Below are positions 41,070 to 64,000 of a stretch of DNA of 64,000 nucleotides, in pieces. The position numbers and the translations under genes are program-made. Position 1 is the stretch's first letter, and each line of letters starts with the position of its first letter. The DNA comes from a bacterium. GTDB taxonomy: Bacteria; Patescibacteriota; Microgenomatia; UBA8517. The stretch spans positions 334,958 to 398,957 of the forward strand of contig CP129472.1 of the NCBI GenBank assembly GCA_030583725.1, given 5' to 3'. Under the pieces are notes generated by a model that ran no database searches, had not been told where the DNA came from, and saw only the letters and a list, made by a program, of their open reading frames with translations.

Positions 41070-42722
41070 TTATAACTGAATCTCTTTTCCATCCGAACCA
41101 GCTATAGTCATCTTAATCTTAGAGTCCTTTTTGGGGTATTTTTCCAGAAACTCTTGATTTTCACTCACTAAGTAGATGGTGTGGTACTCGCTTCCATCCT
41201 TTCGCTTCAAATCTCTGCCTTTAAGCAAGCCTTCTCGCCTGAGTTTACGAATTGAGGACGGATGAACGCCTCTATTGGAAGTAATCTCAAATTTATCAAA
41301 CCACTCAGACTTGTCATCGTGTTTACTGCGTTTTAGTGGCGGAATGACACCTTCCACTATATTCCTTCGACAATCGACACAACGTAAGCCATCCAGATTC
41401 CACCAAATCTCATTTCCATAATGACTTTCACCACAAATGCCACAATTGTATGGACCTTCACTGGCTTCTAGGAAGAAACCATCTGGTTCTTTGGTAAGTC
41501 TGCGTTTTCGCATGTTTTCAATGCCGTCATGTTCACCAATGAGTCTTGCGAGTTGGACTAGATTGTTAGAAGCATATTTTTGTCGCTTAGCTTCATCAAT
41601 CTTTGATTTTGGTTTAACAGGTTCTTCTTTCTTGCCAGCGAGTTTAAGCATGTCTTCTTCACGCTCATGGCCCTTTAATCGACCTTCAAGGTATCCAAGT
41701 CTGTAACTGACACTATTGGAGAGTAATCGCCAGTTTGTGTCTTCTAGTGAGTTCTTAATGACCTTTTCTAGCTCCGAAACACTGATTCTGTCTCTTCTGG
41801 ATGAGTCGGCATCTTGAACGGTGAAGGGAACAATCACATATTGGCCTATTTCTGGTTTATCAAACGATAGTTTGGCGTATTTAGCGTTCTCAAGCGACTT
41901 GGTTAGCAAAGTTTCTAGATCAGAGATGTTGGTCTTCTTGAGCTGTAGAGAGCGCTCATAGACAGGATTATCGTACTTTTGCATTTCTTCTTCCCGTACG
42001 ACCTTAGCTACTTCCATCGCCTCTATCAGCTCAATGTATTCTTGACCCTCTTTGTCGGACAAACAGAACTCAGAGCGGTATTTTTCAAGTAACTCCTTGT
42101 CTTTTTTCTTCTCAGCTTCTCGTTCAAGATCTTTCTTGCCCAAATCCTCAACTTCAACTTTCTTGTATTTACATGAGGTACATTTTTCAGTGGTGGTTAT
42201 AACATCGCCTTTTCGTTTGTAGATGGTCTTTATCTCTTTACTACACTCAGGGCATAAATTTGGTTTTGAGATGTGTTCTTCACCATTGTCATACAAGCCT
42301 AGACGCTTCTTGCACTTTGGACATTCAAAAATAAACATAACTCGCATTGGTTTATCTTCTGGCCAGTCTTCCAGATGCTTAAAATCTTCGGCAACCATCT
42401 CGGTTTTACAATGGGGACACAAAACATTGGCAGGTGAAGGGGTATTGTCTACTTTGTCTTGCCTTACTCGATCTTTTTCTACCCAATCGCTGATAGTCTC
42501 TGCTTTACGTCGATATTCCTCACCCTTTTTAACTCGTAGATCCCAAGAAATGTAATGATTAAAACCTTTTTCTACTTCTTCTGGAGAAATTTCTTTAAGC
42601 TTGGGGTCGGTATCTTTTTTCTTGTATAAGTCTTGCCAGAAATGAATAACTTTTAAGCAGGCCTTTATAGTGAAAAGGTCGTAAAGATCAACATAATATT
42701 GTTCATCTTTAAGATATTTCAT
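41070..42722 (-). CDS. multi-zinc-ribbon protein (three CxxC...CxxC ribbons plus a KE-rich coiled coil), unknown family
   Basis: CPHCKTEM...CPKCKKR; CPECSKE...CTSCKYKK; CGICGES...CVDCRRN. A paralog occurs at 63204. Confidence 0.6.
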   Translation of the reverse strand: MKYLKDEQYYVDLYDLFTIKACLKVIHFWQDLYKKKDTDPKLKEISPEEVEKGFNHYISWDLRVKKGEEYRRKAETISDWVEKDRVRQDKVDNTPSPANVLCPHCKTEMVAEDFKHLEDWPEDKPMRVMFIFECPKCKKRLGLYDNGEEHISKPNLCPECSKEIKTIYKRKGDVITTTEKCTSCKYKKVEVEDLGKKDLEREAEKKKDKELLEKYRSEFCLSDKEGQEYIELIEAMEVAKVVREEEMQKYDNPVYERSLQLKKTNISDLETLLTKSLENAKYAKLSFDKPEIGQYVIVPFTVQDADSSRRDRISVSELEKVIKNSLEDTNWRLLSNSVSYRLGYLEGRLKGHEREEDMLKLAGKKEEPVKPKSKIDEAKRQKYASNNLVQLARLIGEHDGIENMRKRRLTKEPDGFFLEASEGPYNCGICGESHYGNEIWWNLDGLRCVDCRRNIVEGVIPPLKRSKHDDKSEWFDKFEITSNRGVHPSSIRKLRREGLLKGRDLKRKDGSEYHTIYLVSENQEFLEKYPKKDSKIKMTIAGSDGKEIQL

Positions 42723-59698: not shown

Positions 59699-60041
59699 CG
59701 TTTGGTATAATTACGCTTGATATATTATCTCGTCGGATAACGGTAAACAAGTTTTGGCCGTTATCCGATTTAGGTAGTTGTTGTTTATTATGCCTCGTCG
59801 GCTAACGGTAGGCCAAATGATTCTGGATCATTTTATCTTCGTTCGAATCGAAGCGAGGCAGCCAGGTTACGTACTATCATGAAAAAAGTTGTAAAAACAC
59901 ACTTATTCCGATTCTATTCTGATGTAATTCCTTGTAAGCAGGCCTCTTAAGCAACACGCACAAAAGCTGTCTTGTAAATAAATATTAGTTTCCTTATCTA
60001 TTTTTATAAAGATCTAAATCCTTATCAAGATAGGTCTCTCG

Positions 60042-60357
60042 TTCTCATCTTAAAACAACTGACTCCGGTCAACAACAAAAAATTATAATTGACAAGTATT
60101 CAGGCTCAATTTTGAGATAATACACACCAACCTTTTTGTCCTTTGTCAAGAGTTGGTATTTTATGAAGATTAATTTTACAAATACAATGAAGACTATTAT
60201 GGCTATTTCTTGTAAAAGCACTTATTCTCATCTTAAAACAACTGACTCCGGTCAACAACAAAAAATTATAATTGACAAGTATTCAGGCTCAATTTTGAGA
60301 TAATACACACCAACCTTTTTGTCCTTTGTCAAGAGTTGGTATTTTATGAAGATTAAT
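60042..60357. repeat. perfect 133-bp tandem direct repeat (60042-60174 and 60225-60357) separated by a 50-bp spacer
   Basis: Identical copies read directly. Each unit contains TTGACA/TTATAAT promoter-like hexamers and the hairpin CCAAC-N20-GTTGG. Confidence 0.9.
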
Positions 60358-60370
60358 AATACGAAGAAAG

Positions 60371-60814
60371 ATGGAGAATAAGTTTTTGCTTATTGACTTT
60401 AAAAATTCTGTCCTTATAATAATTCTTATTATGGCTGATCCATTAGATAAAATCTTTACACCCGATCGAGAGGTCGATTCGCAGTTGCTTTCAGACATAT
60501 TGTTTCCATTTGTTAAGATCAATTCCGAAGACTTATCAATATTTTTTACCAACTTAGGAAATAAATTGCCCATAAATAAAAAGCTCATCATTTTTTTGCT
60601 GGCCAAAAAGGCTTTGTATATAAAGGGTAAGGTAGAGCTCGAGAGCGTGACTCCAAATGACATTATCGATCAGACAGATTTAAAATCAGGAAGCGTACAC
60701 CCCGGTTTGAAGCAATTAAGGGATAAAAATTTGGTAATTGTTAAAGACGGTAGGTATTTTATTCCTAATTATCAAATCAATGAAATGAAGAATCTCTTCT
60801 TAGAAGGCAAGTAA
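60371..60814 (+). CDS. small winged-helix-like protein (paralog pair A, member 1)
   Basis: Its C-terminal half aligns with the next ORF (KKLIIFLLAKKALYIKG... against KKILIYLLALRGWPYVI...). An alternative start is at 60431. Confidence 0.45.
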   Translation: MENKFLLIDFKNSVLIIILIMADPLDKIFTPDREVDSQLLSDILFPFVKINSEDLSIFFTNLGNKLPINKKLIIFLLAKKALYIKGKVELESVTPNDIIDQTDLKSGSVHPGLKQLRDKNLVIVKDGRYFIPNYQINEMKNLFLEGK

Positions 60815-60815
60815 T

Positions 60816-61202
60816 ATGGCATTAAAAGATTTAACAATAGATCAAGGTCAGATGTTAGAAGAACTTATAGAAAGTTCTGTAAGTTCATATATTAGGTACG
60901 ATATTAATCAAAAGGCTGTAATCTTCCTCCCGGAAGCATTGAGAAATTTATCGGTCCAAAAAAAGATTTTGATATACTTGCTTGCTTTAAGGGGTTGGCC
61001 ATATGTTATAGAGTCAACAGACATTTCTCAGGAAGCTCAACCCAAGGATATCGCCAAGGCTATAACGGAAAACGGAAGTACGGTTAGGAACAACCTTCAG
61101 TCTTTGTTAAAAGATGGCCTTATTTTGAAAAGTGCTACCAAATATTCAATTTCGCAAATTGCAATAACGAGAATCGAAGATTTTATGAGAGAAGAAAGAT
61201 AG
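60816..61202 (+). CDS. small winged-helix-like protein (paralog pair A, member 2)
   Basis: Paralogous to the preceding ORF, with a 1-nt gap between them. Confidence 0.45.
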   Translation: MALKDLTIDQGQMLEELIESSVSSYIRYDINQKAVIFLPEALRNLSVQKKILIYLLALRGWPYVIESTDISQEAQPKDIAKAITENGSTVRNNLQSLLKDGLILKSATKYSISQIAITRIEDFMREER

Positions 61203-61206
61203 AAAT

Positions 61207-61614
61207 ATGGAAAAGAAGATACAAGAAGCATTAAAAAAAGCAAAAGACATCATCAACAACTCTGAAATAGGAGATGATTTACGAAGTGCCGGTTTTAGAG
61301 AAGTCTTCCGTCTTTTAATTTCTTCTGATGTAGACTCTGGAAAAACTCAATTAAAGACTGAATCTGATTCTGGTTTAGCAGCTCCAAGGACAAAAAGTAA
61401 GGCTAGGGGCAAGGTTGCTGGAATAGTAGATGAACTAATAAGTAACGGTTATTTTGCAGAAAAGAGAAGAGATATTGACTGCATTGAACAAATAAATCTT
61501 GTAAAAGGAATAAAAATTCCGCGAAACCAGATGGCCACTATTCTCGTACGAAAACTAAGAAGCGGAGTTTTAAAGAGAGAGAAAATCACAACAGGTTATG
61601 TATATTTTAAATAA
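61207..61614 (+). CDS. small winged-helix-like protein
   Basis: A C-terminal wing-like pattern (LVRKLRSGVLKREKITTGYVYF). Confidence 0.4.
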   Translation: MEKKIQEALKKAKDIINNSEIGDDLRSAGFREVFRLLISSDVDSGKTQLKTESDSGLAAPRTKSKARGKVAGIVDELISNGYFAEKRRDIDCIEQINLVKGIKIPRNQMATILVRKLRSGVLKREKITTGYVYFK

Positions 61615-61617
61615 ATT

Positions 61618-62028
61618 ATGAAAACAGATATTTCTACTATTTTAAAGCAGATTACAGATCTTAAGAGAAGGGTCTCCGTTCTTGAAAGACAGATAGTAAA
61701 CCAGCCCGAACAAATAATTAATAGTGTCAAGGAATTATCATTGAAAGAATTCTTGCTTGAAAAAAGGCCGAAAAACGATGTACAAAAAACTTTTTATATA
61801 GGAGTGTATTTGGAAAAATATAAAGGAATAGGTTCGTTTACAATGGATGATATCAAAAAAGCATTCAAAGTTGCCAAAGAACCCTCTCCCTTAAATATAA
61901 ACGACAAAATTAATAAAAATATCTCTAAAGGTCGTTTTATGGAATCGGATACTAGAGATGGAAAAAAGACTTGGATGTTGACTTCGACAGGTGAACAGGC
62001 GGCAAATAGTGATACGGAAATTAAATGA
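61618..62028 (+). CDS. small coiled-coil + winged-helix-like protein (paralog pair B, member 1)
   Basis: LKQITDLKRRVSVLERQ followed by a wing region. Paralogous to the next ORF. Confidence 0.45.
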   Translation: MKTDISTILKQITDLKRRVSVLERQIVNQPEQIINSVKELSLKEFLLEKRPKNDVQKTFYIGVYLEKYKGIGSFTMDDIKKAFKVAKEPSPLNINDKINKNISKGRFMESDTRDGKKTWMLTSTGEQAANSDTEIK

Positions 62029-62035
62029 AATAACT

Positions 62036-62446
62036 ATGGACGATTTGACAAGCATAATAGATCAACTGAAAGATCACGAGAAACGTATTTCTGCTTTGGA
62101 AGGAAACCTTACAAGTAATAATTTAAAAACAACTTCAAAGGTAAAAGAATTGACAATAACAGAATTGGTAAAAGGGGAAAAATTTCATTCTGGACAGAAA
62201 AAAATTGCCACGATTGTTGGATATTGCGAGAAGATACTTAAATTAGAAAAAATTGATGAAGGTAAGATTAAAAATAATTGGGTAAATGGTAAATTTGACG
62301 GAAAATATAGAAGCAACTTTATTGAACGCGCCGTTGGTGACGGATTGATAAGAGATTTGGAAGACGGAACATACGACCTTAGCCAAACCGGGGAAAGTTT
62401 CTTTGAAGAATTACTTCATAAAAACAATGGAAAAACTCAAAGCTGA
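62036..62446 (+). CDS. small coiled-coil + winged-helix-like protein (paralog pair B, member 2)
   Basis: The start was moved to ATG 62036 (MDDLTSIIDQLKDHEKRISALEGNL). Paralogous to the preceding ORF. Confidence 0.45.
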   Translation: MDDLTSIIDQLKDHEKRISALEGNLTSNNLKTTSKVKELTITELVKGEKFHSGQKKIATIVGYCEKILKLEKIDEGKIKNNWVNGKFDGKYRSNFIERAVGDGLIRDLEDGTYDLSQTGESFFEELLHKNNGKTQS

Positions 62447-63182
62447 TCTTGCCATAAAGGTTGATGACGAAAAGTTAATCGAAAACTTATTTTCTAGCTT
62501 TCAAAAGATATCTGAAGAATATATAGCGCAGAAACCCGTTGACTTACTTCAAAATACTGGTCTTTTTCTGGAATCTGTTATGAGAGTTACCCAACATTTA
62601 ATAGAGGGCAAGCACACCCCTCTTGGGGGAAAATTTGGTTTAGACGATTGTGTAAAAAATCTCGAATCAGTCGCTGGAAACGACGGGCTAAGAATACATG
62701 TTTCAAGATTAAGCCGTGCAATCTATGATTTCAGAAGCAGAAAGAAATCTGTACATCTTAAGGCCACGGATCCCCAAGCAATAGATGCAGACTTAGTTTT
62801 TAACGTATGTAACTGGATTTTGATAGAGGTATTAAAAGAAAGCGGTGTTGCTGGAGCAGAACAAGAAATAAAGATCCTTCACACCAGAAAAGTTCCGTTA
62901 GTCCAAAGTGTGGGTGGTATATTAAGAACTACAAACCCAAAACTATCTGGAACCCAAAGGATTTTATTACTACTCTATTCCAACCCGGATGGAATATCGG
63001 TTGATGAATTACTAGAAAGTACAAAAATTAAGATTAAAAACAAAAATCACATGAACAAGGATTTAAAAAACCTAGAAACTAGGGATATGGTTCACTTACT
63101 TCCAAACGGAAATTGGACATTGTTTGGGCGTGGTTTTAATGAGGCAGAGGTTATAATAAGTAAATTTTCTTCCTTAAACTAA
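62427..63182 (+). CDS. HEPN-like (R-x4-6-H) plus C-terminal winged-helix protein
   Basis: SRLSRAIYDFRSRKKSVH motif, with C-terminal ILLLLYSNPDGISVDELLE...GNWTLFGRG. Confidence 0.45.
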   Translation: MEKLKADLAIKVDDEKLIENLFSSFQKISEEYIAQKPVDLLQNTGLFLESVMRVTQHLIEGKHTPLGGKFGLDDCVKNLESVAGNDGLRIHVSRLSRAIYDFRSRKKSVHLKATDPQAIDADLVFNVCNWILIEVLKESGVAGAEQEIKILHTRKVPLVQSVGGILRTTNPKLSGTQRILLLLYSNPDGISVDELLESTKIKIKNKNHMNKDLKNLETRDMVHLLPNGNWTLFGRGFNEAEVIISKFSSLN

Positions 63183-63203: not shown

Positions 63204-64000
63204 ATGAATAATTTAGGGGATGAACAGCATTACAACAATTTATATGATCTCCATACGATAGAAGAATGTTTACAAAGTCACAAATTTGCCATAAAAAGTA
63301 AGCCTCAGAAACCCAAGGGCTCCAGAGTAAAAGCTATCAGAATAGTTACAGATCTTTTACTTATTACATTAAGGGTGAAAGATATAGGAAAAAGTCGGAA
63401 ACGATTCGAGAATGGATGGCTAGAGATAAAGAAAAGGATGATAGGGTTGAAAATGCAGTTACTCCGCGAAACGTTTATTGTGATTCTTGTTCAAACGAGA
63501 TGAATATGACCATGAAACATCTGTCATCTAACGACACAAGAGTAATGTTTTGGTTCGAATGTCCAAATAAATGCAAAAAAAGAAAGGCAGTTTTTGACAA
63601 TGGCGAGGAATTTAAACCAGAACCCCCGCTATGCCCTAGATGTTCTGGAAAACTTAATGAAAAGCTTGAAAGGAAAGGTGAGGCATTAATAACTTATATC
63701 TCCTGTCCCAACTGCAAATATAAAAATAAAGAAATTATCGATTATGAGAAGGATAGAAAAGAATGGGCAGAAAAGAAAAGGAAAGATAAAGAGCTACTTA
63801 AAAAATACAGATGGCAATTTTGTTTAAACGAAAAAGAGGGTCAAGAATACATTTCTCATATAGAAAGCATGAAACGACTTAGGGAGGTAATGGAAGAAAG
63901 TGAGAAAAAACAAAAAGACCCCACTTACAAGAAAGTTCAAAAACTGAAAAGGTTAAAGATCACTGATCTAAGGGAAAACCTGGAGAAAATACTTACAAAA
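63204..64000 (+). pseudogene. paralog of the 550-aa multi-zinc-ribbon protein, apparently frameshifted (-1 near 63300-63330), continuing past the window end
   Basis: Frame A (63204-) gives MNNLGDEQHYNNLYDLHTIEECL, which matches the paralog's MKYLKDEQYYVDLYDLFTIKACL. Frame B, from about 63302, gives ...IKGERYRKKSETIREWMARDKEKDDRVEN...FECPNKCKKRKAVFDNGEEF...CPRCSG...CPNCKYK, which matches the paralog's ...VKKGEEYRRKAETISDWVEKDRVRQDKVDN...FECPKCKKRLGLYDNGEEH. Confidence 0.55.

Follow-up and report, generated by a model that had tools for sequence, protein, structure and literature searches.

A winged-helix gene array with a HEPN-like terminal protein, linked to restriction-modification operons and islands in Patescibacteria

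Near the far end of the stretch analyzed here (64,000 nucleotides of contig CP129472.1, called the window throughout), six small genes, g1 to g6, stand one against the next on the plus strand between positions 60371 and 63182. They are an uncharacterized accessory cassette of bacteria of the candidate phyla radiation (CPR; Patescibacteria): five genes for small winged-helix proteins, then a sixth whose product presumably joins a HEPN-like domain to a winged helix and would be the effector of the set. Such cassettes were found in about 60 metagenomic and genomic loci, commonly on variable islands and often within restriction-modification (R-M) operons, and throughout them the last gene is conserved while the genes before it diverge quickly. 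We see roughly an even chance that this is a HEPN effector cassette tied to R-M and borne on islands, with winged-helix partners that vary, which would act as an accessory defense of the abortive-infection kind or as a toxin-like module.

An operon of six genes

All six open reading frames (ORFs) in the ORF listing of the window point the same way. The boundaries below use the ATG starts preferred both in alignments of homologs and in gene calls made independently on further assemblies of this sequence.

60431-60814, plus strand: g1, small winged-helix protein of family A (127 amino acids from the ATG at 60431; 147 from an alternative ATG at 60371)
60816-61202, plus strand: g2, small winged-helix protein of family A, paralog of g1 (128 amino acids)
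61207-61614, plus strand: g3, family B, helical N-terminal part and probable C-terminal winged helix (135 amino acids)
61618-62028, plus strand: g4, family C (C1 type), N-terminal coiled-coil helix, linker and winged helix (136 amino acids)
62036-62446, plus strand: g5, family C (C2 type), paralog of g4 (136 amino acids from the ATG at 62036; 151 from a GTG at 61991)
62427-63182, plus strand: g6, family D, HEPN-like helical domain, beta hairpin and C-terminal winged helix, putative effector (251 amino acids from the ATG at 62427; the frame is open from 62403)

For g1, the homologs favor the start at 60431 over the one at 60371, and independent gene calls give g5 as 136 amino acids. With these starts, the spacings in order are +1, +4, +3, +7 and -20 nucleotides (nt), which bears out a first-pass annotation that had described six co-directional frames with gaps or overlaps of 20 nt or less; on sequence grounds, g1 to g6 read as one compact operon with the layout of translationally coupled genes. 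The window has a G+C content of about 34%, and the closest relatives of its proteins are from Paceibacterota, from Minisyncoccia and from the Patescibacteria group.

Two pairs of these proteins are plainly related: g1 with g2 (blastp E value 3e-5, 23% identity over 91 amino acids) and g4 with g5 (7e-8, 26% over 123). Iterative hidden Markov model searches of the ORFs of 72 related loci put the first pair into family A, the second into family C and g3 into a family of its own, B; a further family, X, is a 160-amino-acid variant with hhalign probabilities of 96% to C and 96% to B. The annotation had counted three paralog pairs, but its third, g3 with the C-terminus of g6, does not survive (blastp E value 0.3; 0.8% hhalign probability for B against the D C-terminus).

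The terminal protein and its family

The AlphaFold2 (AF2) model of g6, built with 36 homologs, has a predicted local distance difference test score (pLDDT) of 86.5. In it, residues 1-153 form a domain of alpha helices only, a beta hairpin follows, and residues 175-248 fold as a winged helix. Foldseek pairs the C-terminal part with winged helices of the MarR/IclR/DtxR kind at a probability of 1.0, and the N-terminal domain with the solved HEPN structures 2hsb, 1ufb and 3o10 at probabilities of 0.84-0.96, template modeling (TM) scores of 0.53-0.61 by target and E values of 0.6-0.9. The HEPN-like R-x4-6-H motif that the first-pass annotation had read in g6 is R103-x6-H110, invariant in the 36 close homologs and with both residues at least 90% conserved in 150 representatives of the D superfamily that share 19-40% identity with g6. 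Seven further residues (G45, F47, E49, P93, D120, W130 and E134) are conserved to that same degree. The superfamily consensus around the motif is Y..RNKRG..H, again R-x6-H, and its RNKRGxxH core resembles Abi-type HEPN motifs.

How large is this family? Close homologs of g6 number 119 at cluster level (50-90% identity, all of about 250 amino acids, a Pfam domain in none), and an exhaustive profile search gathers 690 D-superfamily representatives (50% clusters) with E values below 1e-3, nearly all of them 245-265 amino acids long. Many of the 150 representatives match winged helix-turn-helix (wHTH) families, and g6 itself matches nothing in Pfam or NCBIfam, the curated HEPN families included. 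Those scans give no ATPase domain in its 251 amino acids either, and in the model the helical domain and the wHTH are the only domains to be seen. Given a HEPN-type domain with an R-x6-H motif, D is presumably a metal-independent ribonuclease (RNase), and we take g6 and its relatives, from the model, to be a conserved putative effector with a HEPN-like domain fused to a winged helix.

The small proteins

In the AF2 model of g4 (pLDDT 84.9), a long N-terminal helix (residues 5-27, in agreement with the coiled coil that the annotation had assigned to g4 and g5) leads by a flexible linker into a winged helix. Its best Foldseek matches, with E values from 3e-3 to 3e-2, are all wHTH proteins: MepR/MarR (probability 1.0, E value 3e-3), STIV F93, pNOB8 AspA and RosR. 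Run against the PDB, the family A profile retrieves only wHTH proteins (best E value 9e-4), and so, weakly, does that of family B (best E value 0.085, with a weak match to AspA among them). The wHTH folds claimed from sequence for the whole array are thus seen for g4 and the g6 C-terminus by model and Foldseek and for g1 and g2 by profile; for g3 they are seen weakly, from its own profile and from the likeness of B to X. Winged helices are what the model and profile checks found, and the reading of the genes as an array of them stands.

Domain databases say much less. Scans of g1 to g7 against Pfam, NCBIfam, PHROGs and PADLOC gave nothing significant and only faint wHTH matches, such as those of g2 to HrcA_DNA-bdg, Csa3 and CasR; the best score of g1 to g5 against MarR or MarR_2 was that of g1 against MarR_2, 13.2 bits where the gathering cut-off is 27. 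No match to NTP_transf_2 or related nucleotidyltransferase families appeared in g1 to g5 in the Pfam and NCBIfam scans. By the same scans, none of these five wHTH proteins beside g6 is an MNT nucleotidyltransferase, and the cassette holds no AbiEii-like gene.

Conservation and divergence of the cassette

We fetched 72 loci; wherever the sequence reached far enough, one to five small A, B, C or X genes run in the same direction as the D homolog, and D always closes the array. The layouts include A-C-C-D, B-B-C-D, B-B-X-D, A-C-B-D, B-C-D and A-X-D, and the A-A-B-C-C-D of the window is the largest array seen. C-family proteins retrieved independently of D likewise occur in such arrays. Remote relatives of D, at about 30% identity, retain the partner families (A-C-C-D in locus L073, A-C-X-D in L079), one archaeal locus is B/C-like-D, and locus L078 is A-DUF5343-D. 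The gene directly upstream of the remote D in that last locus (L078:6508-6990) matches Pfam DUF5343 with an E value of 1.7e-13; a relation of DUF5343 to families B or C was not detectable, and we found no literature on it. Far from being scattered singly through genomes, then, the homologs keep company, and the diversified paralogous set that had been noticed beside one HEPN-like gene is a linkage conserved across dozens of loci.

Conserved company does not mean conserved sequence. Over 38 non-redundant loci, the median pairwise identity is 65% for D, 30% for the gene adjoining D and 27% for the first gene of the array; the small genes diverge fast and D is conserved, which is conflict-type evolution. 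A single comparison makes the contrast vivid: the window and locus L009 are 87% identical in DNA from the middle of g4 to the end of the window, and blastn finds no detectable similarity between them across g1, g2, g3 and the 5' part of g4. Because this dissimilarity stands next to a 3' half that is 87% identical, we conclude that the array has had its 5' part swapped. A pattern-limited scan of 185,579 species-representative genomes found the close D subfamily in only 9 of them.

Some arrays that are otherwise similar in their A, B, C and X genes end not in D but in another protein, which we call family E.

L080:5739-6410 and L081:5473-6147: family E, terminal gene in place of D (222-224 amino acids)

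The N-terminus of this protein is a family-B winged helix (hhalign 98%), and the helical domain at its C-terminus shows conservation of LRKxLEKLI and GxKFLGDxSAHNP and has a K/R...H motif. Its homologs number 821 at cluster level (90% identity); they are mostly from Patescibacteria, and none has a Pfam domain. The C-terminal domain shows no profile similarity to the HEPN-like domain of D and no PDB match; its motif is, as we take it, reminiscent of DUF4145-type HEPN domains, and to call it HEPN would be a guess at the level of a motif. The appearance of E in place of D at the end of some arrays speaks for a modular system whose terminal effectors can be exchanged.

Restriction-modification operons and genomic islands

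Among 133 neighboring proteins, the commonest Pfam families belong to R-M systems: N6_Mtase, N6_N4_Mtase, Methylase_S, ResIII, Eco57I, HsdM_N, Mrr_cat and EcoEI_R_C. Serine recombinases are present too. In five loci (L011, L013, L025, L039 and L051), hsdM and hsdS directly flank the array, at distances of 2-430 nt, and in L032 and L038 one side of that arrangement is seen. The set in L039 is a minimal B-C-D. Elsewhere it follows a type III-like Res gene (L010, L047 and L056), type IIG or type ISP enzymes (L046, L020 and L073) or an EcoRI-type methylase (L071). The type I operon that embeds the cassette in L013 runs hsdM, B, B, D, hsdS, hsdR and also has, between hsdS and hsdR, a 352-amino-acid gene of unassigned family (L013:5292-6350), which may be another embedded gene.

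The second recurring setting is the island. In L009, an island at tRNA-Gln carries a serine recombinase together with a ParB-methylase and a BfiI-like nuclease, and the Salinibacter relative has as its neighbors integrase fragments, AbiGi and a toxin-antitoxin pair of the PIN type. Two features mark the left side of the variable region in the window.

59791-59864, plus strand: tRNA-Gln(CTG), upstream border of the cassette-bearing variable island (ARAGORN, Rfam)
59891-59983, plus strand: 93-nt segment common to the window and L009, left edge of the swapped region (blastn, 91% identity)

The same tRNA-Gln(CTG) lies 5' of the cassette region in four genomes, at a distance of 0.5-5 kb: in the window and, 3-5 kb upstream of the cassette, in L009 (301-374), L020 (956-1027) and L039 (2857-2928). 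In L009, the serine recombinase and an R-M system separate the tRNA from the cassette. These placements suggest that integration in these CPR genomes has a hotspot linked to tRNA-Gln. Just 5' of the tRNA-Gln of the window, at 59725-59775, an inverted repeat is formed by the sequence tctcgtcggataacggt...gccgttatccga, which is similar to the 5' part of this tRNA (ctcgtcggctaacggt) and may be a fragment of a tRNA or what remains of an attachment site.

Comparison with known systems

HEPN genes in R-M operons are a recurrent theme of defense, with at least 16 HEPN clades and PrrC-EcoprrI as the worked example (PMC3710099). Genes found inside type I R-M systems often turn out to be defense systems (bioRxiv 10.1101/2024.01.29.577857; PMC11411939), and the presence of a gene inside a type I R-M, BREX or Hma system has served successfully to predict new defense genes (bioRxiv 10.1101/2024.01.29.577857; TgvAB in PMC11411939). 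The cassette fits the R-M-linked theme, and its layout, a HEPN-wHTH effector with an expandable set of diverging winged-helix paralogs, is absent from that description.

PrrC-EcoprrI offers the closest parallel in arrangement: in the five embedded loci, a protein with a HEPN-type R-x(4-6)-H motif lies inside a type I hsd operon, and by analogy a latent, second-line RNase would be expected. The differences are considerable. PrrC and RloC fuse an N-terminal ABC-type ATPase to HEPN, whereas D has a C-terminal winged helix and no ATPase; D is preceded by one to five small winged-helix genes and PrrC is not; the hsd embedding is seen in those five loci and not in the window, and about half of the copies, that of the window among them, have no R-M gene beside them; and sequence similarity between PrrC and D was not detected. 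The AbiJ type resembles D by faint matches of Pfam Abi_C (PF14355) in 9 of the 150 D representatives (best E value 0.011, far below the Pfam threshold) and by the presence of solo AbiJ-type HEPN genes in R-M operons (PMC3710099); it differs in that D has its HEPN domain N-terminal and its wHTH C-terminal, and in that AbiJ-type proteins occur outside multi-gene operons with wHTH partners.

HEC-08 is also a HEPN-domain protein embedded in a larger immune operon; it was found by guilt-by-embedding, and the histidine of its Rx4-6H motif is required for defense (Payne et al. 2024, bioRxiv 10.1101/2024.01.29.577857). Yet HEC-08 consists of one DUF3644 HEPN protein, which has zinc-ribbon domains and is embedded in Hma systems, and D has no DUF3644 match. 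The HEPN-MNT and AbiE systems are, like the cassette, compact operons of mobile islands, and they encode a HEPN toxin or, as AbiEi, a wHTH antitoxin; but the cassette has neither the MNT nor the AbiEii nucleotidyltransferase, and several wHTH genes in place of one. As for MarR-family and AspA-type proteins, which give the best structural matches to g4 and the g6 C-terminus, the cassette genes form arrays rather than single regulators and stay under the Pfam MarR threshold, and g4 has an N-terminal coiled coil instead of the MarR dimerization helices and no ligand-pocket signature.

Flanking sequences and downstream genes

Outside the operon lie the following features, the first pair just 5' of g1.

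60042-60182 and 60225-60365, plus strand: two direct copies of a non-coding 141-nt segment
63204-63503, plus strand: g7 (99 amino acids)
63500-64000 and beyond, plus strand: g8, with zinc-ribbon CxxC motifs (268 amino acids, running off the window)
41070-42722, minus strand: 550-amino-acid ORF, paralog of g7 and g8 by alignment

The 141-nt copies are 98% identical, with a 133-nt identical core and a period of 183 nt, and so the fresh duplication described in the first-pass annotation is real; its promoter-like nature fares worse, for a consensus scan finds no plus-strand sigma-70 promoter in the repeat. By eye alone, one can read on that strand a TTGACA and an extended -10-like TGAGATAAT, and on the minus strand each copy has TTGAGC-N16-TATAAT. 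The segment is possibly the promoter region of the operon. As a structured RNA or known RNA family it was rejected (Rfam gives the tRNA only, and the fold z is -0.8), and likewise as a conserved regulatory element, being absent from all other loci. The repeat breaks assemblies, since an independent Logan contig (L001) begins inside copy 2.

Downstream, the zinc-ribbon gene does have the paralog in the window that had been noted. Residues 1-74 of g7 align with residues 1-82 of the 550-amino-acid ORF at 33%, and residues 14-258 of g8 with its residues 127-371 at 50%; from these alignments, g7 and g8 look like a split, C-terminally truncated paralog of that ORF. We rejected g7 to g9 as members of the cassette, as they were found in three near-identical loci only. 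Of the two co-occurrences that the annotation had proposed to check, the one with the HEPN-like gene holds in dozens of loci and the one with the ribbon gene does not.

Discussion

What might such a cassette do? Since it lies on variable islands, and often inside R-M operons, it would most likely be a second-line defense of the abortive-infection type, in the manner of PrrC with EcoprrI. The g1 to g5 proteins (A, A, B, C and C) would form complexes among themselves and with D, as subunits that regulate, sense or inhibit; these partners, or else the R-M complex or DNA, would keep D inactive; and when infection or a failure of R-M was sensed, D would be released and would cut RNA. HEPN genes in R-M operons being a known theme, and the cassette fitting it, we favor a latent HEPN RNase that is predicted to be gated by its wHTH partners.

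A good deal weighs against this. The structural scores for HEPN are weak, with no match of the g6 model below an E value of 1e-3 in Foldseek; PDB profile searches with D alignments match the wHTH part and no HEPN entry; and the Abi_C matches are below threshold. Defense models add little: PADLOC-DB v2.0.0 gives the window proteins only faint, wHTH-level matches (E values of at least 0.003), and the PADLOC models hold no dedicated family for the 150 D relatives, with a single faint match to AbiEi (0.006). Genomic context is mixed as well. By raw count, at least 14 of the 32 informative loci have R-M genes next to the cassette, and in more than half of the informative loci no R-M neighbor was found with the seeds used. 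In the window itself, the cassette is flanked by the tRNA-Gln and housekeeping genes (Ham1 and HAD), and no R-M gene adjoins it.

Might D simply be a HEPN toxin, and the small winged-helix proteins its DNA-binding antitoxins or autorepressors, in an addiction module that stabilizes the island or the R-M operon rather than sensing phage? We rate this as unlikely, though worth taking seriously: small genes tightly coupled in translation precede a putative nuclease that is larger and conserved, the islands that carry the cassette are mobile or variable, other toxin-antitoxin pairs lie next to it, the partners evolve fast, and wHTH antitoxins (AbiEi) and HEPN toxins are established classes (PMC3710099). 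Three to six genes would nevertheless be unusually many, the MNT nucleotidyltransferase that is the usual partner of HEPN is absent, and an insertion that recurs at one precise place, between hsdM and hsdS, is more in keeping with a functional tie to R-M than with addiction alone; in mechanism, this idea overlaps with the favored one and is inseparable from it in silico. A purely transcriptional role, in which the proteins are controllers of R-M or the island or nucleoid-associated proteins, and the helical domain of g6 is a non-catalytic domain for ligand binding or dimerization, strikes us as improbable. All six proteins have MarR/IclR/DtxR-like winged helices, and paralogous pairs could heterodimerize on asymmetric operators. 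R-M operons often carry controller proteins, too, but the known ones are single small Xre-type HTH proteins and not arrays of three to six genes. A repressor of R-M systems has been described (PMC12255303) and counts for the regulators; the near-invariant polar residues of D (E49, R103, H110, D120 and E134), which look like an active site, the many unrelated genomic contexts of the cassette and the finding of no operator or upstream DNA element common to the loci all count against them.

Very unlikely, in our view, is a partition or maintenance module of a mobile element, in which the small winged-helix proteins would bind centromeres and spread along DNA in the manner of AspA. pNOB8 AspA is indeed among the best structural matches to g4 (TM 0.58-0.66) and recurs in the weak matches of family B, and the cassette does sit on islands; the match, however, is one of generic wHTH fold, the cassette encodes no ParA or ParB motor or adaptor, the loci have no repeated centromere-like DNA in common, and the host contigs are mostly chromosomal. 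Small, fast-evolving, paralogous genes near R-M genes could also be an anti-defense set from a phage or satellite (inhibitors of R-M, for example), which is scarcely credible here. The phage-derived origin that the first-pass annotation had offered is rejected because a scan of 2.9 million IMG/VR viral contigs with D patterns found no relative of D and a BFVD fold search gave no whole-protein match to it; PHROGs gave no match, no structural, capsid or replication genes were found nearby, and the cassette is co-oriented with, and embedded in, intact host R-M operons. An antitoxin or regulator set beside a HEPN effector, in contrast, is still a live reading of what the annotation proposed, and the R-M and tRNA-island context points to host defense or a toxin-like function.

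The favored reading, a HEPN effector cassette linked to R-M, can be taken one step further, with more hesitation than conviction. Together, D and E make up well over a thousand sequence clusters with no Pfam, NCBIfam or PADLOC model, and they might, on a tentative view that we think rather less than probable, belong to an undescribed modular, multi-subunit immune family, in which hypervariable A, B, C and X modules for sensing or specificity gate a terminal D or E, often wired into type I R-M as a back-up, abundant in the CPR and reaching archaea and other bacteria.

The CPR bacteria (Patescibacteria) have tiny genomes and few recognized defense systems beyond R-M, and a recurrent, unannotated cassette built into their R-M operons would go some way to filling the gap. 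Should the cassette prove functional, it would provide a testable case of specificity modules that diversify by gene duplication and cassette swapping and, perhaps, a new example of immunity in layers, R-M with abortive infection behind it.

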